25,319 nt of DNA from a virus (Duplodnaviria > Heunggongvirae > Uroviricota > Caudoviricetes), in the IMG/VR virus record IMGVR_UViG_2648501787_000014; one strand, written 5' to 3'. Under the pieces are notes generated by a model. It worked only from the letters and a program-made list of their open reading frames with translations. It did not search any database and was not told the origin of the DNA. The translations under genes were made by a program, and so were the position numbers. How positions within the stretch are numbered: the stretch's first letter is position 1; each line of letters starts with the position of its first letter. This document shows, one piece after another, positions 3,422 to 25,319 of the stretch.

Positions 3422-3855
3422 GCAGAATAACCGCGATTATCTCCGCTCTGGTTATCTGCATCATCGTCTGCCTGTCATGGGCTGTTAATCATTACCGTGA
3501 TAACGCCATCGCCTACAAAGAGCAGCGCGATAAGGCCACATCCACAATCGCTGACATGCAGAAGCGTCAACGTGACGTAGCAGAACTCGATGCCAGATAT
3601 ACAAAGGAGCTTGCTGATGCTAACGCGACTATCGAAAGTCTCCGTGCTGATGTTTCTGCTGGGCGTAAGCGCCTGCAAGTCGCCGCCACCTGTGCAAAGT
3701 CAACGACCGGAGCCAGCAGCATGGGCGATGGAGAAAGCCCAAGACTTACAGCAGATGCTGAACTCAATTATTACCGTCTCAGAAGTGGAATCGACAGGAT
3801 AACCGCGCAGGTTAACTACCTGCAGGAGTACATCAGGACGCAATGCCTTCGATGA
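3418..3855 (+). CDS. Rz: Rz i-spanin (inner-membrane spanin subunit)
   Basis: N-terminal TM segment ([16 protein letters not shown]) then coiled-coil; N-terminus close to lambda Rz; overlaps the R stop. Confidence 0.9.
3617..3802 (+). CDS. Rz1: Rz1 o-spanin lipoprotein, embedded in the +1 frame of Rz
   Basis: Embedded ORF with signal peptide and lipobox ([20 protein letters not shown]) and a Pro-rich mature region; start taken at the internal Met (track ORF begins at 3590). Confidence 0.8.
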
Positions 3856-5525: not shown

Positions 5526-5948
5526 ATGGCGACTGAACCAAAAGCTGGTCGCCCCTCTGATTATATGCCGGAGGTGGCTGACGATATCTGCTCGTTGCTT
5601 TCTTCTGGCGAGAGTTTGCTGAAAGTATGTAAGCGTCCTGGTATGCCGGATAAGTCCACTGTTTTCCGCTGGTTGGCAAAGCATGAGGATTTTCGCGACA
5701 AGTACGCGAAGGCAACTGAGGCACGAGCTGATTCTATTTTCGAAGAGATATTCGAAATTGCTGACAATGCGATTCCAGATGCTGCTGAAGTGGCAAAGGC
5801 AAGACTTCGCGTTGATACACGCAAATGGGCGTTGGCCCGAATGAATCCCCGTAAGTATGGCGACAAGGTAACTAACGAGCTTGTCGGTAAGGACGGCGGC
5901 GCAATCCAGATTGAAACATCACCGATGAGCACTCTATTCGGAAAATGA
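5526..5948 (+). CDS. Terminase small subunit
   Basis: HTH-like N-terminus (GRPSDYMPEVADDICSLLSSGESLLKVCK ... STVFRWL) typical of phage small terminases; directly upstream of and overlapping the large terminase. Start taken at the second ATG (5526) on RBS spacing; track ORF starts at 5520. Confidence 0.8.
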   Translation: MATEPKAGRPSDYMPEVADDICSLLSSGESLLKVCKRPGMPDKSTVFRWLAKHEDFRDKYAKATEARADSIFEEIFEIADNAIPDAAEVAKARLRVDTRKWALARMNPRKYGDKVTNELVGKDGGAIQIETSPMSTLFGK

Positions 5949-7360
5949 CCTCGATTAATCCTATCTTTGAACCGTTCATTGAGGCGCATCGCTACAAAGT
6001 CGCCAAAGGCGGTCGAGGTAGCGGTAAATCATGGGCAATTGCGAGGCTGCTTGTTGAGGCGGCACGTCGGCAGCCTGTGCGTATTCTTTGCGCTCGTGAA
6101 CTGCAAAACAGTATCAGCGATTCGGTAATCCGGTTGCTTGAAGATACCATCGAGCGTGAAGGGTATTCGGCTGAGTTTGAAATTCAGCGTTCCATGATTC
6201 GTCATCTCGGAACGAATGCTGAGTTCATGTTCTACGGCATCAAAAACAACCCGACGAAGATTAAATCGCTAGAAGGTATTGATATCTGCTGGGTGGAGGA
6301 AGCGGAAGCGGTAACGAAGGAATCATGGGATATCCTGATACCAACCATCCGCAAGCCGTTTTCCGAAATATGGGTGAGCTTTAACCCTAAGAACATCCTC
6401 GACGATACCTATCAGCGATTCGTTGTAAATCCTCCCGATGATATTTGCCTGCTGACGGTGAACTACACCGACAACCCGCACTTTCCTGAAGTCCTCCGTC
6501 TGGAGATGGAAGAGTGTAAACGCAGAAATCCGACACTGTATCGTCACATCTGGCTTGGTGAGCCAGTGAGCGCAAGTGATATGGCAATCATCAAACGTGA
6601 ATGGCTTGAAGCTGCAACCGATGCGCACAAGAAACTCGGATGGAAAGCGAAAGGCGCTGTTGTTTCTGCACATGACCCGTCAGATACAGGGCCAGATGCT
6701 AAAGGTTACGCATCGCGCCACGGTTCGGTAGTTAAGCGCATTGCCGAAGGTCTGCTGATGGACATCAACGATGGTGCTGACTGGGCTACTTCGCTGGCGA
6801 TTGAAGACGGCGCTGACCACTACCTGTGGGATGGTGATGGTGTTGGTGCCGGGCTACGCAGACAGACAACGGAAGCGTTCTCCGGTAAGAAAATCACCGC
6901 CACGATGTTCAAGGGTAGCGAATCGCCATTCGATGAAGATGCGCCTTACCAGGCCGGAGCATGGGCTGATGAAGTCGTGCAGGGCGACAACGTTCGCACT
7001 ATTGGCGATGTATTCCGCAATAAGCGAGCGCAATTCTATTACGCGCTGGCTGACAGGCTGTATCTGACATATCGGGCGGTTGTTCACGGTGAGTATGCAG
7101 ACCCCGACGACATGCTGAGTTTCGACAAAGAAGCGATAGGCGAGAAGATGCTGGAGAAGCTGTTTGCAGAACTGACGCAGATCCAGCGCAAATTCAATAA
7201 CAACGGGAAGCTGGAGCTTATGACTAAGGTCGAAATGAAGCAGAAGCTCGGTATTCCATCTCCTAACCTGGCTGATGCGCTGATGATGTGTATGCATTGC
7301 CCGGAGTCGGCTGCGCAACCCGACTATTCCAGTTACTCAATTCCTTGTGGTGTAGGTTGA
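5945..7360 (+). CDS. Terminase large subunit
   Basis: 471 aa; Walker A motif KGGRGSGKS near the N-terminus; nuclease-like C-terminal half; ATGA overlap with the small subunit. Confidence 0.9.
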   Translation: MTSINPIFEPFIEAHRYKVAKGGRGSGKSWAIARLLVEAARRQPVRILCARELQNSISDSVIRLLEDTIEREGYSAEFEIQRSMIRHLGTNAEFMFYGIKNNPTKIKSLEGIDICWVEEAEAVTKESWDILIPTIRKPFSEIWVSFNPKNILDDTYQRFVVNPPDDICLLTVNYTDNPHFPEVLRLEMEECKRRNPTLYRHIWLGEPVSASDMAIIKREWLEAATDAHKKLGWKAKGAVVSAHDPSDTGPDAKGYASRHGSVVKRIAEGLLMDINDGADWATSLAIEDGADHYLWDGDGVGAGLRRQTTEAFSGKKITATMFKGSESPFDEDAPYQAGAWADEVVQGDNVRTIGDVFRNKRAQFYYALADRLYLTYRAVVHGEYADPDDMLSFDKEAIGEKMLEKLFAELTQIQRKFNNNGKLELMTKVEMKQKLGIPSPNLADALMMCMHCPESAAQPDYSSYSIPCGVG

Positions 7361-7361
7361 T

Positions 7362-9560
7362 ATGGCAGAAAAAAAGATGACTGACTGGCATCGCAAGGTG
7401 CTGTGCAACTTTGATAATGCCTGGTCAGCAACGCAGGATATGCGTGAGCAGATTATTGAGGCTCAACGTTTCGTCCGGGTATCCGGCGCACAGTGGGAAG
7501 GCAGCACAAACGCTGGTTACTCATTTGATGAAGGCAGGTTTGAGCATTATCCGCGCTTTGAACTGAATAAGATTGCCCGTGAATGTGATCGCATCATTGG
7601 CGAGTATCGACAGAATCGCATCAGCGTTAAATTCAGGCCGAAGGACGATAAGGCATCGGAAGCGTTAGCCGAAAAGATGAATGGTAAATTCCGCGCTGAC
7701 TATCAGGAAACATCCGGTGGTGAAGCGTGTGATAACGCATTTGATGATGCTGTAACGGGCGGATTCGGTTGTTTCCGCATGTGTGCCGATTACGAAGATG
7801 AAATGGATCCGAGTAACGAGCAGCGACGCATCAGCCTTCTTCCTGTTTACGACCCAGCGACATGCGTCTTCTTCGATCAGGACAGCAAGCAATATGACCG
7901 CTCTGATGCTATGTGGGCTATGGAAATGTTCTCCATGACGCCCAAAGCGTTCGAGGCTGAATACCCTGATTCCACCGCGGCAAGCCTTTCTCGTGATGAC
8001 ACTGGCACTCAATATGACTGGTCAACGCCCGATGCCATCTATGTTGGACGCTACTACGAAGTTCGCATAGAGAAGGTGAAGCTCACGGCGTGGCGCAACC
8101 CTGTTAGCGGAGAAACGGCAATCTATGATGAAGAGCAAATCAAAGATATTGTCGACGAGCTGACCGATGGCGCATTCGAACTGATTGGTGAGCGGACAGT
8201 GAAGAAACGCAGAGTTTATTGCGGTCTTCTGTCTGGCGCTGAATGGCTGGAAGAACCGAAGCGTATTCCGGGCGAACATATTCCTCTCATCCCGGTATAT
8301 GGGCGTCGCTCATTTGTTGATAATCAGGAGCGAATCGAAGGCCACGCAGCAAAAGCGATGGATGCACAGCGTCTTGAGAACCTGATGGTTTCCATGATTG
8401 CAGATAACGCTACTCAGGCTGGCGGTGATGGCATTCCTATCGTGGATGTTGATTTCATTCCCGGTCCATTAATGAATCACTGGGCAGAGAGGAATAAGAA
8501 AAGACCTGCAGTTCTCCCCATGACCAGCAAGAAGGACAAAAACGGAACGGTCATTTCAGAGGCTCAGGTTGCTGGCTGGACACCTCCGACACAAATGCCT
8601 CCTGCTCTTGCCGGGCTATTGCAGTACACCGGAACGGCTATTCAGCAAATTACAGGTGCGTCGCAGCTTGAGAACATGCCGAGCAACGTCGCCACCGATA
8701 CCGTTGATAGCATTTTTAACCGGATGGATACGCAGTCCTATATCTACATGGACAACATGGCTAAATCCATGCGCCGCGCTGGCGTCGTGTGGCTTTCTAT
8801 GGCGCGTGAGGTCTATGGCAGTGATACGCCGATGCGTATTGTTAATGAGGACGGCAGCGATGACGTGGCGCTGATGACTGGTGAAGTGGTTGACCGTCAG
8901 ACAGGGCAGGTTATCGCGCTTAACGACCTTTCGCAGGGTAACTATGAAGTGACTGTCGATGTTGGTCAGTCGTTCGCTACTCGCCGTGATGCAACGGTTA
9001 AGTCGTTACTTTCCATGCTGGCACTTATCCCGCCCGGAACGCCGAAACACGACCTTGTATCGTCGATGATCCTCGACAATATGGACGGCGAAGGGATGGA
9101 CGACCTTAAAGAATACAACCGCAATCAGTTGCTTCTGTCTGGAGTTATCAAGCCGAGAACGCCAGAAGAACAGCAGATGGTTGAGCAGGCGAAACAACAA
9201 CAGGCCAGTCAGCCAGATCCGGCTATGGTTGCTGCGCAAGGTCAGCTTCTTGCTGGTCAGGCTGAATTGCAGAAAGCGCAGAACGAGCAGGCAGCCATTC
9301 AGGTTAAAGCATTCCAGGCACAGACGGATGCTCAGGTTGCTGCGGCAAATGTTGTGAAAATCCTCGCATCTGCCGATAGCCAGCAAAAATCTGATATCCG
9401 TGAGGCGCTGAAACTGCTCGGACAGTTCCAGCAACAGCAAGGAGATAATGCCCGTGCTGATGCAGAGCTTGTCCTGAAAAGTCAGGCACAGGGCCATGCG
9501 CAGCGCATGGACATCAGCAGCATCCTGCAAAAATCAACTCAGCAACAACCACAGCAGTAA
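7362..9560 (+). CDS. Portal protein (P22 gp1-like)
   Basis: 732 aa; internal and C-terminal Gln/Ala-rich barrel segments resemble P22 portal (e.g. GEHIPLIPVYG, PDPAMVAAQGQLLAGQAELQKAQN). Confidence 0.9.
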   Translation: MAEKKMTDWHRKVLCNFDNAWSATQDMREQIIEAQRFVRVSGAQWEGSTNAGYSFDEGRFEHYPRFELNKIARECDRIIGEYRQNRISVKFRPKDDKASEALAEKMNGKFRADYQETSGGEACDNAFDDAVTGGFGCFRMCADYEDEMDPSNEQRRISLLPVYDPATCVFFDQDSKQYDRSDAMWAMEMFSMTPKAFEAEYPDSTAASLSRDDTGTQYDWSTPDAIYVGRYYEVRIEKVKLTAWRNPVSGETAIYDEEQIKDIVDELTDGAFELIGERTVKKRRVYCGLLSGAEWLEEPKRIPGEHIPLIPVYGRRSFVDNQERIEGHAAKAMDAQRLENLMVSMIADNATQAGGDGIPIVDVDFIPGPLMNHWAERNKKRPAVLPMTSKKDKNGTVISEAQVAGWTPPTQMPPALAGLLQYTGTAIQQITGASQLENMPSNVATDTVDSIFNRMDTQSYIYMDNMAKSMRRAGVVWLSMAREVYGSDTPMRIVNEDGSDDVALMTGEVVDRQTGQVIALNDLSQGNYEVTVDVGQSFATRRDATVKSLLSMLALIPPGTPKHDLVSSMILDNMDGEGMDDLKEYNRNQLLLSGVIKPRTPEEQQMVEQAKQQQASQPDPAMVAAQGQLLAGQAELQKAQNEQAAIQVKAFQAQTDAQVAAANVVKILASADSQQKSDIREALKLLGQFQQQQGDNARADAELVLKSQAQGHAQRMDISSILQKSTQQQPQQ

Positions 9561-14589: not shown

Positions 14590-15290
14590 TGGCTGATTCG
14601 AATCTCAACACCCCTGTTATTGTGCAGGCGACGCGGCTCGATACATCAATCCTTCCACGCAATATATTCAGCCAGTCTTACCTGCTGTATGTCATTAATC
14701 AGGGGGCTGATGTCGGCGCAATTGCCGGGAAGGCAAATCAGGCTGGTCAGGGCGCTTACGATGCTCAGGTGAAAAACGATGAACAGGACGTCGAACTGGC
14801 TGATCACGACGCAAGAATCACCGCAAACACAAAAGCGATAAATCTACTTGAGGTCAGGTTAACAACTGCCGAAGGGAAGATAGTCGTACTGCGTAGCGAT
14901 GTTGATTACTTGCTGGATGAGGTTATCGATATTCAGGCGCATCTGGTCACTGTTGACCAAAGACTGGATGACGTAGAAAACGATGTCTCTGGCATTAAGA
15001 GTGATTACGTATCGAAAACCGTAACCGAATTGCAGTCTCTTGAGTCACCGCTGGATGTAAAAACATCATATTCAGTTGATGGAATTCAGGTTGTTGGAGC
15101 AAGAAATACCGGATGGACTGCAGCCACAGGTACGCCACTTCTTGGCTCATTCAACGCTAACCAGTCATACACTGTCGGCACTACGTACACACAATCCGAA
15201 GTCGCAGCTCTCGCTACAGGTTTGCAGCAGGCGCGGCAGCGTATTCTGGCGCTTGAAACGGCACTTAGATTACATGGGCTGATTGACTGA
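14589..15290 (+). CDS. Tail needle protein (P22 gp26-like)
   Basis: 233 aa; N-terminus [36 protein letters not shown] and heptad coiled-coil core; TAATG overlap with gene 10. Confidence 0.85.
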
Positions 15291-17865: not shown

Positions 17866-19703
17866 TGAAAGTAACTGCAAACGGTAAGACATTTACCTTC
17901 CCTGATGGTACGAGCACGGAAGATATTGGAGCCGCCATTGATGATTATTTTGCTGGTCAGGTTGTTCAGCAACAAACAGTTTATCAGGCCAATAATGCAC
18001 CAGTACGTGAAGAACCATCATTGATGCAACAAGCTGGCGATTGGCTCACTGGTGGTCAAAGTGCAGGGCAAATTGCAGAACAGGCTGGTCGTGGTCTGGT
18101 AAACATACCATTTGACGTATTGCAGGGTGGCGCAAGTCTGATTAATGCAATCAGTCAGGGGCTTGGTGGGCCAAAAGTTTTGGATGATGTTTATCGTCCA
18201 GTAGACAAACCGACAGACCCATACGCACAAGCCGGTGAAACAATTGGTGGGTATTTAGTTCCAGGAGTTGGAACGGCAGGAAGCATGGCTATTGGATCGC
18301 TGGCAGAGGCCGCAAATCAGAAAGGCGATTTCGCACAAAATGCAGCTAAAAATGCCGGAGTTAACCTTGCCGCTCAGGGTGTTCTTTCCGCAGCAGCAAA
18401 GGGAATAGGGCGTGGAATAACGGCTATAAAAGGTGATATTGCGCCAGAAGTGGCGAAGAAAATTGCCACATCAGAATCGATGGGCGTGACACCAATGACA
18501 TCTGATGTTATCCCGCCGAAAAATGCTTTCACTCGCGGCCTTACTCAGGATGCCGAGGGGGCTTTGCTCGGGACGGGCTCAAAGCGAGCAGAGCAATATG
18601 CAACGCGGAGTAAGCTGGTAAGCAATTATTTTGACCGTTTTGGTGAGTACAACCCTGATGATGTGGTGAAATCTCTGACCACCACGTTAAGGGGGCGGAA
18701 GGATGCCGCTGGCGCTGTTATCAATGACGTCACCAATAAAATGGGTAATGCCGCAGTTGATACCACAAATACCATGAATGCTCTGAATACAGCGATCGCA
18801 AGACAGGAACGGCTTGGGACGTCTGCCAATCAAAGCCTGCTTACATCCTTGCGTAACCTACGTGAAGAATTAGCAAACCCTGCAACTGATTTGGATGTTA
18901 CGTTTGATCTCTTGCGTCAGCACAGAACAGCATTTAGATCTAATGTTCAGGGAGATGCTATGGTCTTCCCCAACCAGGCAAAAGCAGCTACCAATATGGT
19001 AGAGAATGCAATGTCAAAAGACCTTCGTAACGCAGTTGCTAAAAACCTCGGTGCATCAGACGCAGCAAAATACCTTAAAGCAAATTCCGATTATGCAAAC
19101 GTTTATAATAAGGTGCTTAATAAAAACATTGCCAACAAGCTCAACAAGGCAAGCAGTGAAGCCAGTCCTGAACTTATAAATACCGTTGTATTAAGCAGAA
19201 AACCATCTGACGTGAAACGAATCTGGAGCGCACTGGATGATAAGGGGAAAGATGCTATGCGTGCAGCTTACGTCAGCAAAATAGCGGAAAAGGCCGGGGA
19301 CTCTCCAGCCAAGTTCATCACTGAAGTTAATAAGCTGAAATCTCAGTCAGGCGGTGAAATTTACAACACTATTTTTTCTGGAAAGCACATGAAAGAGCTT
19401 GATGCTCTTCATGAAGTTCTACAGCAAACAGCAAGGTCAGACACCGCAAATGTAGTAACTCAGACGGGGCAATCGCAAGCCAACAGGATAAGGACGATTG
19501 GCGCAACTGCGACCCTTGGCGTATCAATGGGGCTTGAGGCTGGTTTTGGTGCAATGATGCGCTTGTATGAGTCCAAAGCAGCAAGGAATATGCTTCTTCG
19601 TTTGGCAAACACCAAAGCAGGAACACCAGCCTATGAAAGAGCGATAAATAACGCTGCGAATGCCATCAGACCGCTGTTTGCTACTGAGGCAACACAGCAG
19701 TAA
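17862..19703 (+). CDS. Ejection protein (P22 gp16-like)
   Basis: 613 aa; overlaps the gp20 stop; size and position match gp16. Confidence 0.75.
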
Positions 19704-19727
19704 CGTATGGGAAATTGGATTCAATCG

Positions 19728-20117
19728 CTAACATTTTCTTTTTACTTTTCCAACAAAAGCTTTGGTTGAATCCATATTTCCATAACCGGAAATGGTTTTT
19801 GACATTAAAACTGTTCCAGTAGGATGTATTACCCATGAGTCGATAACGCGTTGAGTTTCGCCATTCGCGCCGATTCCTATGATGGAGTTTTTAGACAATG
19901 CTTTGTAAGCCATGCCGCCCGCATCTGTCCCAGAATATGTGATGCTGGCATCTTCACCGTTTGTCTTAATGATGAATGTTCCACTAAAACCATCTTCTTC
20001 CGGATGGAAATTATTTCGTTCTGAATAGCTTATTCCGCGCATATCTCCAACGACCCAGCACTCTGCTGTAGCCCCAAAAGATATGAATAAGAACATAGCA
20101 GTAAGAAATTGCTTCAC
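19728..20117 (-). CDS. Secreted (periplasmic) protein of unknown function; probable moron
   Basis: GTG start preceded by the strong SD taaggaggt (5-nt spacing); signal peptide VKQFLTAMFLFISFGATA then ECW...; opposite strand to the virion genes. The track ORF extends to an upstream ATG at 20198, which lacks an SD. Confidence 0.5.
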   Translation of the reverse strand: MKQFLTAMFLFISFGATAECWVVGDMRGISYSERNNFHPEEDGFSGTFIIKTNGEDASITYSGTDAGGMAYKALSKNSIIGIGANGETQRVIDSWVIHPTGTVLMSKTISGYGNMDSTKAFVGKVKRKC

Positions 20118-20234
20118 GCCAACCTCCTTAGTTTTGAGCAGGATACCATGAAAAAAGTAAACATCTTTTGCGTACTTCACATTTGAATGGTTTGTCATTA
20201 GGATGTTTCCGGTTTTTTAAATATGGAAATTGAT

Positions 20235-20654
20235 ATGAAGAGGATTATTGGCGTCGTTGCTGGCGCTATATTGTTATCTGGGTGCGCAACTATTGTTGGT
20301 GACGAAACGCAGCTTGTGCAAGTGAACAGCAATCCTTCCGGTGCGAGCTTTAAGGTAAAAGACGAATCAGGCGTGATTGTTGCGCAAGGTAAGACCCCGC
20401 AAGGAGTAACTCTTGCCAAGTCAGATGGTAGTTATTTTGGCAAAAAGAGCTACCAGATCACTATGGAGAAGGATGGGTACGAACCAGTTACCCTACCAAT
20501 CAAAGCCAATGCTAATGGTTGGTATATTGGTGGAAATCTTGTGTTTGGTGGGTTAATTGGTTGGCTTGCTGTAGATCCATTTAATGGTGGGATGTATACC
20601 TTGAAGCCTAAAGAGGCAAATGCATCCCTTATACCGTCAACAAAGCAAGACTAA
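20235..20654 (+). CDS. Lipoprotein of unknown function; candidate superinfection-exclusion or lysogenic-conversion protein
   Basis: Signal peptide with lipobox MKRIIGVVAGAILLSGC; Gly-rich amphipathic C-terminus; divergent from the secreted-protein gene; followed by a terminator. Start may instead be the ATG at 20223. Confidence 0.6.
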   Translation: MKRIIGVVAGAILLSGCATIVGDETQLVQVNSNPSGASFKVKDESGVIVAQGKTPQGVTLAKSDGSYFGKKSYQITMEKDGYEPVTLPIKANANGWYIGGNLVFGGLIGWLAVDPFNGGMYTLKPKEANASLIPSTKQD

Positions 20655-20661
20655 TAAATGG

Positions 20662-20686
20662 AACCCACCATCAGGTGGGTTTTTTG
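20662..20686. terminator. Bidirectional intrinsic terminator between the lipoprotein gene and mnt
   Basis: CCCACC-atca-GGTGGG hairpin flanked by an A-run on one side and TTTTTT on the other; convergent gene ends on both sides. Confidence 0.65.
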
Positions 20687-20922
20687 TACAAATCCTTCAG
20701 CGTATCAAACACCATCTTCTTAACAAGTTCGGACTGCTCATCAGCGATGCGTTCCGCATCGTCTCGATAGCCTGAAATTTTGGATTGCCTTGATACAGCA
20801 TCAGTCACTATCTGAACTAATTCTGAATTAATAGAGCGGCCATTGGATTTGGCTCGCTGTTTTAGTTTTTCCTTTAATTCGTAAGGTAGCCGCAGATTAA
20901 ATTGCGGGTCATCTCTTCCCAT
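20671..20922 (-). CDS. mnt: Mnt repressor (Arc/MetJ ribbon-helix-helix family)
   Basis: 83 aa, MGRDDPQFNLRLPYELKEKLKQRAKSNGRSINSELVQIV...ELVKKMVFDTLKDLYKK, closely resembling P22 Mnt. Confidence 0.85.
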   Translation of the reverse strand: MGRDDPQFNLRLPYELKEKLKQRAKSNGRSINSELVQIVTDAVSRQSKISGYRDDAERIADEQSELVKKMVFDTLKDLYKKPT

Positions 20923-20985
20923 TCTTGATGCCTCGCTTTTGTGAGTGGATCGGCATCTTATTATTTGCTGGTTGCATCCTCAATA

Positions 20986-21000
20986 AGACCACTGTGGTCT
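20986..21000. promoter_or_regulatory. Candidate Mnt operator (Omnt-like palindrome)
   Basis: AGACCAC-T-GTGGTCT: perfect 7-bp inverted repeat about a central T, 64 bp upstream of the mnt start, in the divergent promoter region. Confidence 0.5.
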
Positions 21001-21347
21001 CTTTATTTGATTAATAATGCATCACTGCGGCCACGCTGCAGCGATTCCTTGTATCTGGAGCAAATTAAATGACAGATATTATAAATAGGAATTGTTATTT
21101 AATAATATTTGAAAATGAAAATCATGGACGATAGGAATAAAAGTAGTACTTGTTATTTTTAAGTGACGCATTAAACGCATAAAGCATATGTCTGTTGATC
21201 AAGATTCTTGCTTGTTGTAAAATAATTGTTTTGTTCATGTTGTATAGTTTTAAAGTGAATAGAAGATTATTTTTCAAAACAATTGCATCTTTGTCTGCAG
21301 TCATTCCGTTTTCTTCAATATCTAAATTTTCAAACAGGATGACTAAT

Positions 21348-22754
21348 ATGCCTGATATAACTCCAAATGTTGTAATTGGGATGCCTTCTCAACTCTTCAC
21401 TATGGCTCGTTCTTTTAAAGCCGTAGCTAATGGCAAAATTTATATCGGTAAAATTGACACTGACCCGGTAAATCCTGAAAACCAGATTCAGGTTTATGTG
21501 GAGAACGAAGACGGCTCTCACGTTCCTGTATCGCAACCAATCATCATTAACGCTGCTGGTTACCCGGTATATAACGGACAGATTGCCAAGTTCGTAACTG
21601 TGCAAGGCCATTCTATGGCTGTATATGATGCGTATGGTGCGCAGCAGTTCTATTTTCCTAATGTGCTGAAGTATGACCCAGAACAATTTAAAGATACACT
21701 TCATTCTGCGAGCGGAGCGGATAATGTTGGATATAGGGGTTATACTGTTAGTGAGTATCTTTCACACACCGCATTGAGTTTTGGTAACTTAAACGATTGT
21801 CTGTCTCATGACAAATACAAGATAGGAGATAAAGTATTTGTACATGGATATAATTATCCATCAGATGGAGGAATGGCTTCATTTGAGGTTGTGTCATCAG
21901 ATGAACCAGTTGGAATAAAAACTTACGATGGTAAGTTTAAGCTAAAGCGAACATCTGGGCATAATTATCTTGAGTTAATAATAAAAAATGGTGCGACGCC
22001 AAAGATAATTGCCCATAGAGGATGGGCAGGAATAACGCCAAATGAATATCAGGGAGCATTGACTGCGCCTGTTTATTTCGTTCCAGAAAATACAAGGGCA
22101 TCAATTAGATTTTGTGCTGAAAGAGGAGCTTTTGGTGTTGAAGGGGATACCAAAATAACATTAGACGGAGTTCCTGTCATATTCCATGATGAGACAGTTG
22201 ATAGAACTACAAATGGTACTGGTGCCGTATCAACATTTACTTTTTTAGAGCTAAAGGCCCTCGATGCTGGATCGTATGTTTCTGGTATTTATGCAGATGA
22301 GAAAATACTCAATTATGATGAATGGATTAGAGAATGCAAGCGTCGCGGAGTAATGCCATTTGTTGAGTGGTCTGCGCCAATGAGTGTCACTCAAGCTGAT
22401 AATTTTCTTGAAACTATAAATAAATATTATGGCACAAAGCCGACGAATGTCTTTGTTTATTCAACATATCCTGCCGTTCTTGAACTGTTGCGTTCAAAAA
22501 ATGCTTATATTGGACTTGGTGTTATACCATCTTACGGTGTCGCACCAACTACAGAACAATTGGAGCTGGCGTATAAGCTTGGCAACTGTGGTATATCTCT
22601 ATCAGGTGGAATAATTACGAATGCCGCTGTTGTAAATTCAGTTAAGAAATATGGTTTGTTGTTGATTTATGCAATTGCTAACACCCCGGCAAGAATTGAT
22701 AATTGCATATCTGCAGGCGTTGATATAATGATTACTGATTGCTATAGAGGGTAA
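21348..22754 (+). CDS. Tailspike: P22-type N-terminal head-binding domain fused to a GDPD (glycerophosphodiester phosphodiesterase) domain
   Basis: N-terminal ~110 aa ([38 protein letters not shown]...[13 protein letters not shown]...[10 protein letters not shown]) match the P22 gp9 head-binding domain. C-terminal half carries GDPD motifs: [32 protein letters not shown]. Confidence 0.8.
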
Positions 22755-22755
22755 A

Positions 22756-23541
22756 ATGAATATAAAAACATATAGACAAATTCATGGTGGTATGAGGTCG
22801 TTTGTTACCACAAGTTTATTCCCTGTTGGGGCGAATAAATTTGACAAATCCGATGCAAGGAAGTCTGTTCTCAGTAAGACATCATCAGATAGTGCGGCGC
22901 TGGAAGTGATGGATTTAGGATGGCTGGCTGCTGGTACATGTATTTCATTTTGCTGTGATATAAAAATAAATACTCAAATGTCTGGTGCACCGTCAATAAG
23001 CATCGAGTCGCGTAATGGCGCAAGGCTAAGTGATGGAAGGAAAATAGTAAACATAGGCACGACTAACTCTAAAGAATGGGAGACAGTGCGTTGTGATTGG
23101 ATTGTGTCTGAGTTTGATAACTGGATAACTCTGTCATATGGGGCTTCTACACCTGTATTGGGACAGTTTGAGTTCAGAAATCCAAGAATTTCTATCACGA
23201 ATGATCAGGCTAGATTGCCTATAAATTTCTCTCTACTCAGATCAGGTAATGTTTGGCGTGTTGATACTGGCACATTTATTTACAATGGAGCTGTATTAGT
23301 ATCAGCAAACGGTGACTCAATAGAGGTTAGTTGGCCATATGTGAACAATATTAGATCACCAATAGTTCACACAACTATAGATACTGGTTTTAGTCTGTTA
23401 TCTGCTGGATGTATATCATGCGGTCCACATTCAGTAAGTAATTCAGGATGCAAAATTCGATTAATTAAACCTGATGGCTCATTTGTAACAGATGTTACAA
23501 ATGGAACGACACTGAGAATTCATGTAAGCGTTAATTATTAA
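22756..23541 (+). CDS. Hypothetical protein (261 aa) coupled to the tailspike; possible receptor-binding accessory
   Basis: Starts 2 nt after the tailspike stop; same AT-rich composition; Ser/Thr/Asn/Gly-rich, beta-like sequence; no TM segment or known motif recognised. Confidence 0.5.
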   Translation: MNIKTYRQIHGGMRSFVTTSLFPVGANKFDKSDARKSVLSKTSSDSAALEVMDLGWLAAGTCISFCCDIKINTQMSGAPSISIESRNGARLSDGRKIVNIGTTNSKEWETVRCDWIVSEFDNWITLSYGASTPVLGQFEFRNPRISITNDQARLPINFSLLRSGNVWRVDTGTFIYNGAVLVSANGDSIEVSWPYVNNIRSPIVHTTIDTGFSLLSAGCISCGPHSVSNSGCKIRLIKPDGSFVTDVTNGTTLRIHVSVNY

Positions 23542-23801
23542 TTCAACATGTGCGCACGTACCCCTATGAACACACGAGTCTTTGAGTTGTGTGATTAATG
23601 AGACACACAAAGCTTTGCACTTGATTGCAAGGCTTTGTGCTCTTCTGTGGATGTGTGGCTACATGTTTGAAGATCGTTGTGTCGTATTTGTGACATACAC
23701 ATGACAACATCATGCATCAACTTTCTGTTTGTGCCATCAACTATAGCTTAGTGAATGCGGTTAATGCTTGCTAAAACAGATAGTTATGATTGGTGCTACA
23801 G

Positions 23802-23847
23802 ATTCGTAATGCGAAGGTCGTAGGTTCGACTCCTATTATCGGCACCA
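23802..23847 (+). other. Partial tRNA-Thr (thrW-like) 3' end: prophage att core (attR)
   Basis: ATTCGTAATGCGAAGGTCGTAGGTTCGACTCCTATTATCGGCACCA is the anticodon-loop-to-CCA portion of enterobacterial tRNA-Thr; the upstream sequence cannot supply the 5' acceptor strand or D-arm. Confidence 0.75.
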
Positions 23848-24001
23848 TTCTAACGTCTCCCCAAGTCTACTCAAGTATTTAAAAACCTCTTATAATCAGT
23901 ATATTAATGCCCCTTTTAGTCTTTTGACGTCTATTTAAGTACCCCAAACTCTACAAGCAATTGAGGGGATTTGCTGTTCAGTTTAGTGGAGATACCCCCA
24001 A

Positions 24002-24340
24002 GTGAAACTCAATGCCCGTCAAATAGACACTGCCAAGCCAAAAGAGAAGGCTTACAAGTTGGCTGATGGTGGTGGTCTGTACCTCCTGGTAAAACCTGGT
24101 GGAGGAGAATATTGGCGTCTCAAGTATCGTGTAGCTGGTAAAGAGAAGCTGTTAGCACTAGGTGTGTATCCTGAGGTCACCTTAGCTGATGCTCCTGCAA
24201 AACTTGAAGAAGCTAAAAGAGGTATCTCTGGGGGAATCGATCTGATGGAAGTGAAGCGCGAGGAAAAGATTGCCCGGGAAACGCAGTTAAACAACACCTT
24301 CAAAGATATTGCCCTTGAGTGGCACAGTAACAAATTATAA
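24002..24340 (+). pseudogene. Truncated P4-type tyrosine integrase (N-terminal arm-binding domain only)
   Basis: GTG-start ORF VKLNARQIDTAKPKEKAYKLADGGGLYLLVKPGGGEYWRLKYR...LALGVYPEVTLADA is a typical P4-family integrase N-terminus but stops after 112 aa, with no catalytic domain. Confidence 0.7.
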
Positions 24341-24770
24341 TCACAATAATAGTGTATATAATTATACATTGTATGCTTGGTAATCATATAATGATAAAAG
24401 CTTCCGATAATCAGTATGAGATTTGTCCTTAAACTCCTGGACATGCTTTTCTAAATCTTCCAATGGTATATGTCCATTTATACAAATAAAATTCTAGTGA
24501 TAAATACCTTCAGGTATGATTAGACAACATCTTTATTCGATGGGGGTTAATCTATATTTGATATCTTTCTTTTAAATAACAACGCCATTAAAAACGCTTT
24601 GTTTAATGACGTTTTTTTATTGTTTCCTATATAAAGCCTAACCAGCATAAACATTGGTGGCTCTTATGCTCATTGTAATTAAATGAGAGTGTGATTAATG
24701 TCTTTATATATTCTGGTAGTTATTCTCTCCAGACGAATACATTGTAAGAAGATGACTGTTAGTATGTTTT

Positions 24771-24810
24771 AACGTCAATTAACATCAATTAACATCAATT
24801 AACATTAAGG
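24771..24810. repeat. Four tandem copies of a 10-bp unit (aacRtcaatt)
   Basis: aacgtcaatt aacatcaatt aacatcaatt aacattaagg; overlaps the last codons and 3' flank of the MarR-like gene. Confidence 0.7.
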
Positions 24811-25289
24811 TTTGATAATAATTTTTTGTTGGCGAGTTCAAATGTTTTCATTTCATCATCTGATAGCCCGCTCCAGATTTTCTTTAGCATTACATTTTGA
24901 GTGTTTATTAGTTTTTGAGCAAGTGTAACTCCGTCAGGGGTTAAGCAAATACTTTTGCTTCGACGATCGTTTTTATTATTAATTCTTTTGGCAATATTCT
25001 TTTTTTCTAATTTGTCTATGATGTGTGTGATGTTTGTTTTGGAGAATTGTAACTCCTTGTAAATATCAGAAGGGGACTGACAATAATCATCAGACATATA
25101 TAATGAAACTAACACCATAAATGTTGAAGTGTTTATTCTATACTCGCTCAATTCATTTTCTATAATACTCTGGATTTTGTCATTTACTCTAATATATAAG
25201 TGTATTAACAGACTCTCCTGAGCCGGGTATGCCGGATTTTTGATTTTTTTGTAGTTTGTTATAGTTTTTAATAAATCTATATTATTCAT
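24795..25289 (-). CDS. MarR-family winged-helix transcriptional regulator
   Basis: MarR-type wHTH segment SPSDIYKELQFSKTNITHIIDKLEKKNIAKRINNKNDRRSKSICLTPDG; very AT-rich. Start taken at the internal Met (MNNIDLL, GGTGG RBS); the track ORF runs to the window edge at 25319. Confidence 0.65.
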   Translation of the reverse strand: MNNIDLLKTITNYKKIKNPAYPAQESLLIHLYIRVNDKIQSIIENELSEYRINTSTFMVLVSLYMSDDYCQSPSDIYKELQFSKTNITHIIDKLEKKNIAKRINNKNDRRSKSICLTPDGVTLAQKLINTQNVMLKKIWSGLSDDEMKTFELANKKLLSNLNVN

Positions 25290-25319
25290 AATTCCACCAC
25301 ACGGCAAAAGAAAACTCAT

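Follow-up and report, generated by a model that had tools for sequence, protein, structure and literature searches.

A putative twin-arginine leader in frame with the tailspike gene, behind an mnt-only ant moron, in P22-like prophages of Escherichia coli

The ant moron of phage P22 is thought to modulate the late transcription that reaches the tailspike gene, gene 9, and sixteen genomes show ten moron types (PMC2629481). An ant moron that retains only the repressor gene mnt has already been published (PMC2629481, section 15 (Villafane et al. 2008); PMC8022706 (Zaworski et al. 2020)), and both ways of reading it, as a new function or as a remnant, are in print in the same papers. A different kind of precedent is WceF of Pantoea stewartii, a trimeric glycanase with the tailspike fold that carries a signal for twin-arginine translocation (Tat), although its export is not shown, as the paper itself says (PMC7949094). 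Here we analysed a 25,319-nt stretch of viral DNA (IMG/VR record IMGVR_UViG_2648501787_000014; hereafter the window), which spans the late half of a prophage of the P22-like (Lederbergvirus) type, from nin/lysis genes, terminase, portal, coat and ejection proteins through the ant moron and the tailspike gene to the attachment end. We focused on the interval between mnt and the tailspike gene (20923-21347) and its flanks. Judged from alignment with relatives, this interval is a composite, in which 20923-21068 is the intergenic part of an mnt-only moron and everything from 21069 onwards belongs to the tailspike module. The explanation as a whole, an ordinary moron joined to a tailspike module that would also encode a Tat-exported isoform of the tailspike, has in our estimate a probability of roughly 0.45.

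The mnt-only immI region is a known and common layout that reflects ordinary mosaicism and not a new remodelling. BLAST comparisons recovered the same divergent order of mnt and gene 9 in L, ST64T, ST104, ST160, SE1, SPN9CC, 720R6, Gally and others, with spacers of 135-146 bp. As in the morons of L, ST64T, ST104 and Para1, mnt of the window is transcribed away from gene 9, the operator has the form AAGACCAC-N-GTGGTCTT, arc, ant and sar are absent, and the whole sits between the gene-16 homologue and the tailspike gene. The window differs in its other moron genes, which comprise a lipoprotein gene resembling epsilon34 gene 15 and a phrog_2651 open reading frame (ORF), and in the distance from mnt to the functional tailspike start, which is 425 bp compared with 135-146 bp there. 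A preliminary description of this DNA had called the immI region remodelled; mnt and its operator are indeed kept, and arc, ant and sar are gone, but the arrangement is the known L/ST64T/ST104-type moron. The comparison with related immI regions that it had proposed likewise showed the mnt/gene-9 layout to be widespread, but the AT-rich DNA beyond it to be independent of immI type. The longer spacer of the window results from a 268-bp block together with a relic of an older gene-9 start.

These two elements were apparent from alignments. Upstream of them lies a conserved pre-gene-9 block (21022-21068, plus strand) that includes the Shine-Dalgarno (SD) sequence GGAG of the late operon (21057-21060), is 85% identical to P22 16157-16203 and is also present in L, 720R6 and JEP4; its cTGGAG-n8-9-ATG layout was found in more than 30 species. 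The next 11 nt, ATGACAGATAT (21069-21079), represent the relic start of the ancestral tailspike gene, as the real gene-9 start in 720R6, L and P22 is the same ATGACAGA(T/C)AT. In the window this relic opens a 21-codon upstream ORF (uORF) on the plus strand, MTDIINRNCYLIIFENENHGR followed by a stop codon (21069-21134). Collinearity with 720R6 and L extends through cTGGAGCAAATTAA-ATGACAGATAT and ends 11 nt into the relic start, where the 268-bp block begins (21080-21347, 26% GC). Its first part is an AT-rich spacer (21080-21254, plus strand) that is absent from 720R6, L and P22, and its last 93 nt form a leader of 31 codons in the tailspike frame (21255-21347, plus strand). The tailspike gene resumes directly after the block with an SD of its own, AGGA (21336-21339), and ATG 21348, reading ATGCCTGATATAACT and encoding MPDITPNVV. 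Thus, of the roughly 350 bp of AT-rich, ORF-free DNA that had been described as leading straight to the tailspike, the base composition held (26-31% GC across 21000-21400), while the lack of reading frames did not, given the uORF and the in-frame leader inside it.

The 268-bp block was found in phage JEP4, in 44 of 5426 complete E. coli genomes (chromosomal, one copy each), in 15 IMG/VR contigs and in several metagenome contigs, always upstream of tailspikes, and the junction ATGACAGATAT|TATAAATAGG was identical in every copy. It was absent from plasmids, from isolated phages other than JEP4, and from 37 other species with P22-type head-binding domains. What precedes and follows it varies. The block stands behind L-type mnt, behind the unrelated JEP4-type mnt (JEP4, L002, L020) and behind a complete mnt-arc-ant region (L013, L009, L010, L018; in L013, Mnt, Arc and Ant are 98%, 98% and 86% identical to those of P22, and the other three also carry ant), and the receptor-binding and C-terminal domains after it differ from case to case. 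Because the same tailspike 5' end accompanies the block behind such varied upstream regions, the block belongs to the head-binding module and not to immI.

Several other candidates for the content of the block were discarded. The peptide of the relic-start uORF is not conserved, as its stop lies elsewhere in L007, L015, L019 and L020, where codon 17 has changed from GAA to TAA, and two minus-strand ORFs (21122-21304, 60 aa; 21079-21180, 33 aa) are broken in relatives by the 5-bp and 1-bp indels that occur in the spacer. An origin as a mobile element (a miniature inverted-repeat transposable element or an insertion sequence remnant) was rejected, since terminal inverted repeats were not found, the flanking 11-mers match at 9 of 11 positions, and the block occurs as a single copy per genome, always before a tailspike and never on plasmids. 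For a structured RNA, the Rfam scan of 19600-25319 at E<=1 was empty at this region, with a weak match to a threonine leader elsewhere, and the predicted folding of 21056-21365 was not more stable than that of shuffled sequences (z of -1.7 for the plus and -0.6 for the minus strand).

Evidence that the leader is coding came from its open frame, its homologues and its codon pattern. Ahead of ATG 21348, the window has 51 codons without a stop in the tailspike frame (probability ~0.008 at this composition). The leader encodes Val or Met plus 30 residues; it begins with GTG in the window and with ATG in most relatives, and this is the annotated start in the JEP4 record. None of more than 20 distinct versions contained a stop, an indel or a frameshift, and all begin with ATG or GTG. 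When the block was used as query in a sensitive search, 18 additional E. coli genomes emerged as a second lineage that matches only 21249-21340 of the window, at 76-78% identity. These are moron-less P22-like prophages adjoining intS, in which the gene-16 homologue is followed by ~100 unrelated nt, an ATG opening MNRRSFFKSIASFVALTPLSSLSNMSNRIAH, and then MTNITPNVV. A third variant, MNRRSFFKSIASFVALTPFSSLSSQSNRIAP, was present behind a different upstream sequence on a metagenome contig (L173; OGXH01004339), where, at 5618-7900, the leader is fused to a tailspike resembling an SGNH/GDSL esterase; the leader thus accompanies phosphodiesterase, esterase and glycosidase-type tailspikes alike.

Comparison of the first two lineages placed the boundary of their homology at the leader itself. 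The leader has 31 codons in both and is ~70% identical without gaps, whereas the preceding 100 nt are 65% identical, which is the level of shuffled sequences (mean 59%, maximum 68%), and between-lineage homology starts within 6 nt of the leader start codon. The head-binding domain behind it is 92% identical, with 26 of 28 differences at third codon positions. Within the leader, 27 differences are distributed over codon positions 1, 2 and 3 as 7:3:17 (chi-square p=0.003), which corresponds to 8 synonymous codons and 13 replacements, and the replacements preserve RR-x-F-F-K, the hydrophobic core, S-x-S, S-N-R and a Pro at -6. The SD inside the leader (21336-21339, plus strand) lies in the codons for Asn27-Arg28 and precedes the ATG of the short form by 8 nt; despite the 30% divergence, each of the three lineages retains it as AAY-AGG-A, in which AGG is a rare codon. 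In a random 31-codon stretch of this composition, an open frame with RRxF[FLIVM]K near its start would be expected with a probability of ~5e-6, or once in 200,000. The open frame, the codon-position bias and the conserved starts argue that the leader evolved as protein in the tailspike frame, and on this comparative evidence we consider it probable that it is, or was, under coding selection.

By its anatomy, the predicted leader peptide looks like a twin-arginine signal peptide. Its n-region reads N-R-R-(L/S)-F-F-K at residues 2-8 and is invariant in all versions (Tat consensus S/T-R-R-x-F-L-K), with a chance of ~3e-5 per ORF. The h-region has a best 13-residue mean hydropathy of 1.7-1.8, compared with 1.4-1.75 for the E. 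coli Tat signals of TorA, SufI and AmiA. The c-region is conserved as P-(F/L)-S-S-(I/L)-S, with the Pro at -6, small residues at -3/-1, and basic residues in and after it; in the window, S-I-S is followed by Lys. The Tat pathway carries pre-folded proteins, and tailspikes fold and trimerise in the cytoplasm; Tat would therefore suit a tailspike as cargo, unlike the general secretion (Sec) pathway. That the fold can be paired with Tat is illustrated by WceF, likewise a tailspike-fold polysaccharide hydrolase with an N-terminal Tat signal, of ~28 residues (PMC7949094). WceF differs in being encoded by a chromosomal gene of an exopolysaccharide cluster, without a head-binding domain or a second start, and the two signals show no sequence similarity.

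Based on these features, one late mRNA may be read from two starts to give two tailspike isoforms. An abundant short form would be initiated at ATG 21348 behind the SD AGGA, have the canonical P22-like N-terminus and be built into virions. A minor long form would be initiated at the GTG or ATG at 21255, which has no SD and lies in AU-rich RNA that is predicted to be unpaired. Its RRxFFK signal peptide would send the folded long form via Tat to the periplasm, where the enzyme could cut or modify nascent O-antigen or capsule and so destroy the receptor from within. The loss of receptor might reduce re-adsorption of progeny to debris, exclude phages using the same receptor, or both. That a subset of E. 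coli P22-like prophages make a virion and a Tat-exported tailspike isoform, the periplasmic form remodelling the O-antigen or capsule of its own cell, is a tentative proposal that we hold at somewhat below even odds.

Elements of this scheme have counterparts elsewhere. Two in-frame starts in one late gene, giving isoforms with different fates, are present in lambda S107/S105 and in P22 13/13' (annotated in NC_002371); there the starts are 2-3 codons apart and separate holin from antiholin, whereas here 31 codons lie between them, and the longer product would end up in another cellular compartment. The proposed benefit, removal of the phage's own receptor from the infected or lysogenic cell, is shared with T5 Llp and with O-antigen cleavage by virion tailspikes such as that of BTP1 (PMC4413052), which differ in relying on a separate lipoprotein or on free virions that act from outside. 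Neither the anatomy of relic start plus block nor the Tat-like leader was described in the literature searched, and neither is annotated by the Prokaryotic Genome Annotation Pipeline (PGAP), which starts the tailspike at the short form and leaves the long form unannotated. Tailspikes are regarded as purely virion-borne enzymes acting from outside the cell, and we know of no case of an exported isoform of the tailspike itself.

If the leader is real, some temperate phages would also use a tailspike enzyme within the envelope of their infected or lysogenic host. Receptor destruction, superinfection exclusion or serotype conversion would then have a new route, with consequences for exclusion between phages and for the phenotype of O-antigen and capsule. 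It would also bear on how host glycan-trimming enzymes arose: bacterial enzymes of the tailspike fold that are exported by Tat, such as WceF, could plausibly have evolved from such tailspikes. It would also affect the serotyping of lysogens, including clinical carriers of sequence type 131 (ST131): ~1% of complete E. coli genomes, ST131 strains among them, carry the leader, in addition to the isolated phage JEP4. The putative long form also exposes a systematic gap in annotation, since all automatic callers place the gene start 31 codons downstream of its own.

A number of observations weigh against an exported isoform. No purine-rich SD was found within 15 nt before the leader start in any lineage; the RNA around this start is AU-rich and, by prediction, unpaired. 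Within lineage 1, substitutions are coding-like to a weak degree (5 synonymous versus 5 nonsynonymous). A word-index search for a source of the leader in other protein families found nothing, and 150 of 150 best database representatives of the tailspike begin with the short-form ATG. In 50,697 phages searched by tblastn, JEP4 was the only match to the leader, and among the GTDB loci of 37 other species that encode the head-binding domain there was neither an insert nor an RR leader; being absent from these species and from isolated phages other than JEP4, the leader must be dispensable for tailspike function. The putative cleavage motif is S-x-S and not A-x-A, and tailspike trimers, at 150-300 kDa, reach or exceed the usual size limit of Tat cargo. 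Finally, the leader gave no match at E<=10 to Pfam PF10518 (TAT_signal) or NCBIfam TIGR01409, although such models are insensitive, as bona fide control signals also failed with the Pfam model (TorA none, SufI 15.5 and AmiA 17.7 bits, cut-off 22.7).

Taken at face value, several of these points would suit a scar, that is, an inert block left behind when illegitimate recombination joined a foreign tailspike 5' end to the relic start, the leader being an untranslated fossil or a fortuitous frame, and Mnt with its operator a decaying relic. With the relic start and an imperfect 11-bp repeat (ATGACAGATAT / ATGCCTGATAT) at its flanks, the block resembles a recombination joint, the leader lacks an SD, a hidden Markov model match and an annotation, mnt shows relaxed constraint and pseudogenisation in relatives, and some carriers are defective prophages, e.g. 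TUM10008. However, at this composition ~9% of random codons are stops, so that at 30% divergence a fossil would be expected to have gained stops or indels; instead, the indels hit the spacer and never the leader. Equally unexpected in a scar are the bias towards third codon positions, a between-lineage homology that begins almost at the start codon, and the retention of start codon, RRxFFK, Pro and S-x-S in three lineages. We therefore regard the scar as rather unlikely.

Another possibility is that the leader is translated without being a Tat signal, serving instead as a Sec signal, as an uncleaved anchor that would hold part of the tailspike at the inner membrane, or as a regulatory nascent peptide or ORF that opens the SD of the short form. 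Its n-h-c organisation, the Pro at -6 and S-x-S would fit Sec signals too, and a 13-nt pairing inside the leader ORF (21299-21311 with 21332-21344) that covers the internal SD recurs in lineage-1 variants and takes another form in L060, a member of lineage 2, in which a different pairing covers SD and start. Such pairing is not kept in L173, though, and the predicted structures are no more stable than those of shuffled leaders (z -0.1 to -0.6). Against a Sec signal, the invariant RR-x-F-F-K is the Tat consensus, Lys8 interrupts any long hydrophobic core of the Sec type, and the cytoplasmic folding of tailspikes fits Tat and not Sec. Overall, this alternative to a Tat signal appears improbable. 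Two further features of lineage 2 upstream of the leader were recorded in L060: a TTG-started 18-codon uORF behind a relic GGAG (3454-3510), whose TGA overlaps the leader ATG (ATGA), and a perfect 10-bp inverted repeat, CATTAATGCA-n7-TGCATTAATG (3471-3497), that is not kept in lineage 1 or L173. Translational coupling of this uORF to the leader was treated as chance, as neither lineage 1 nor L173 has an equivalent.

The block might also act on transcription and not through a peptide, either by giving the tailspike its own, lysogenic promoter (TTGATC-17-TAAAAT) or by silencing through H-NS. In line with this, 15 variants share both hexamers (21195-21223) without a change but differ at 5 of the 17 positions between them, and the block has a GC content of 26%. 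Yet this single match compares with 3.5 expected from shuffles of the same region, the chance that 12 positions stay invariant is ~0.1, and lineage 2 and L173 carry the leader without this sequence or any promoter match. A promoter or silencer cassette is thus very improbable. The lack of an independent block promoter also takes something away from an exported isoform: with the only match below shuffle expectation and missing in lineage 2, we do not claim lysogen-specific expression.

We then turned to the moron part of the interval. The mnt gene (20671-20922, minus strand) is intact, as had been reported, and encodes an 83-aa ribbon-helix-helix (RHH) repressor, identified from the ORF list, from matches to Pfam Arc (3e-21) and Repressor_Mnt (1e-18), and from 73% identity to P22 Mnt and 96% to Mnt of the E. 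coli phage 720R6. Three residues (L31I, K45R, P46Q) set it apart from the E. coli consensus allele, with 0 synonymous changes. At 20986-21000, the perfect palindrome with 7-bp arms noted earlier, AGACCAC-T-GTGGTCT (AGACCACtGTGGTCT), was present at the position of the P22 Mnt operator and aligns with the annotated P22 Omnt (14828-14844), AGGTCCAC-G-GTGGACCT. According to the P22 annotation, 2 nt separate Omnt from TTGAGA, the -35 hexamer of the leftward Pmnt. The geometry in the window is the same: the operator is followed by TA and then, on the minus strand, by an mnt promoter assigned by positional homology to P22 Pmnt (20955-20983), with -35 TTGAGG (20983-20978), a 17-nt spacer and -10 TAAGAT (20960-20955). 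The corresponding promoters are TTGAGA-17-TATCAT in P22 and TTGTGG-17-TATGAT in phage L. In the promoter scan, the promoter of the window has 8 of 12 matching positions, which is under the threshold, and was for this reason not reported. Rarity of the palindrome was dropped as evidence, since 8 palindromes with 7-bp arms occur in the window where 6.7 are expected, and the weight of the assignment comes from position and homology. On these grounds, the palindrome is the Mnt operator, with binding predicted; there is no second Mnt operator elsewhere in the window at up to 3 mismatches.

Variation among relatives ties this palindrome to its repressor. Relatives with undamaged mnt keep both arms without variation and have a free central base (T/G/A/C), and the operator tracks the Mnt allele: GGTCCAC goes with His6 in P22, AGACCAC with Gln6 in L-type alleles including that of the window, and TACCG-TTT-CGGTA with the JEP4-type Mnt, which is 46% identical. 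His6 is reportedly a specificity determinant of Mnt. Thirteen distinct E. coli haplotypes were compared; the arms are perfect in all 10 with undamaged mnt, and the three with damaged mnt, carrying R53* (L021/L116, L022) or R29C (L011/L118), which hits the invariant RHH arginine, are exactly those with a mutated arm (GTGGTCA, GATCAC, and AATACCAC with GTGGTCG). This co-decay indicates that palindrome and repressor belong together. It also shows the Mnt/operator pair to be dispensable, the 13 alleles containing 14 nonsynonymous versus 9 synonymous variant sites and a nonsense allele. The view of mnt as a regulatory relic is accordingly supported in part, by the substitutions, the nonsense allele and the arm decay in relatives; in the window, gene and operator are intact.

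What Mnt might control here is limited by what was lost. Queries with P22 Arc, Ant and immI DNA (tblastn/blastn) detected no Arc or Ant homologue in the whole window, the sole Arc match being a cross-match to Mnt, which bears out the earlier statement that arc and ant are missing; sar is absent from the window as well, and the Rfam scan was likewise empty at the locus. Consistent with an mnt-only moron, mnt diverges from the SD and start of gene 9, and 20900-21079 can be aligned with 720R6 and L nucleotide by nucleotide up to ATGACAGATAT. The only P22 immI DNA that survives is the last 47 nt before gene 9, the 21022-21068 block. At the site of Pant, P22 has TTGACA-17-TATATT and the window TCGGCA-17-TGCATC, so that the -10 is destroyed, and the promoter scan found no sigma-70-like site overlapping the operator on either strand. 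Three features of a complete immI, Pant, arc and ant/sar, are therefore lacking, and of the P22 geometry the operator retains only its placement relative to the leftward mnt promoter. Set against P22 immI as a whole, the window shares the level of Mnt identity, this placement and the 47-nt block, and differs in the missing Pant -10, arc, sar and ant, in Gln6 instead of His6, and in operator half-sites that are unlike at +/-5 and +/-7 from the centre.

The suggestion that Mnt silences the tailspike cassette in the lysogen, by repressing a rightward promoter at the palindrome or blocking read-through, finds no support in this arrangement. It could appeal to the location of the operator between mnt and the tailspike, to the proposed tuning of late transcription into gene 9 by the P22 moron (PMC2629481), and to the palindrome followed by CTTTATTT, which scores as terminator-like on the plus strand. 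Against it, the T-run after the palindrome is not kept in L or P22, Pant is dead (TGCATC) and no other promoter overlaps the operator on either strand. Moreover, the same leader block stands behind a complete immI, behind a different mnt or behind no moron at all, and some relatives with nonsense mnt have an unchanged tailspike region. We consider repression of the tailspike by Mnt highly improbable. With its former targets Pant, arc and ant gone, Mnt is here an orphan that probably regulates itself; beyond that, it could at most silence the ant gene of an infecting phage with the same operator.

The remainder of the moron region and the tailspike itself provided additional observations. The ant moron also holds the lipoprotein-like ORF (20223-20654; epsilon34 gene-15 family, phrog_6823), with a weak PEGA-domain match, after which a bidirectional terminator-like hairpin lies at 20662-20681. 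The phrog_2651 ORF (19728-20198, minus strand) occupies the place of P22 sieA, and there is no SieA homologue. The tailspike short form (21348-22754, plus strand; 468 aa) combines the P22 head-binding domain (Pfam Head_binding, 6e-66) with a GDPD glycerophosphodiester phosphodiesterase domain (1.5e-23) as its body, and not a beta-helix glycosidase. None of the 5426 complete E. coli genomes contains this body; its best phage relative is a tail protein of Erwinia phage Snitter (31% identical), with other matches to tail GDPDs of Gram-positive phages. Its predicted activity suggests that the receptor contains glycerol phosphate. A 261-aa ORF (22756-23541) begins 2 nt past the tailspike stop; it has no Pfam, PHROG or phage tblastn match, and complete E. 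coli genomes lack it. Its product might serve the short GDPD tailspike as a partner or as a second module.

At the far end of the window, no tRNA gene was found in 23000-25319, and the sub-threshold Rfam match to the threonine operon leader (24575-24686, minus strand; 25.8 bits versus a gathering cut-off of 55; E=0.12) is probably due to chance in AT-rich DNA. Positions 23600-23900 match ~5000 E. coli chromosomes at 94-98% identity, and beyond the prophage end lies an N-terminal fragment (112 aa) of a P4-type integrase (24002-24340).

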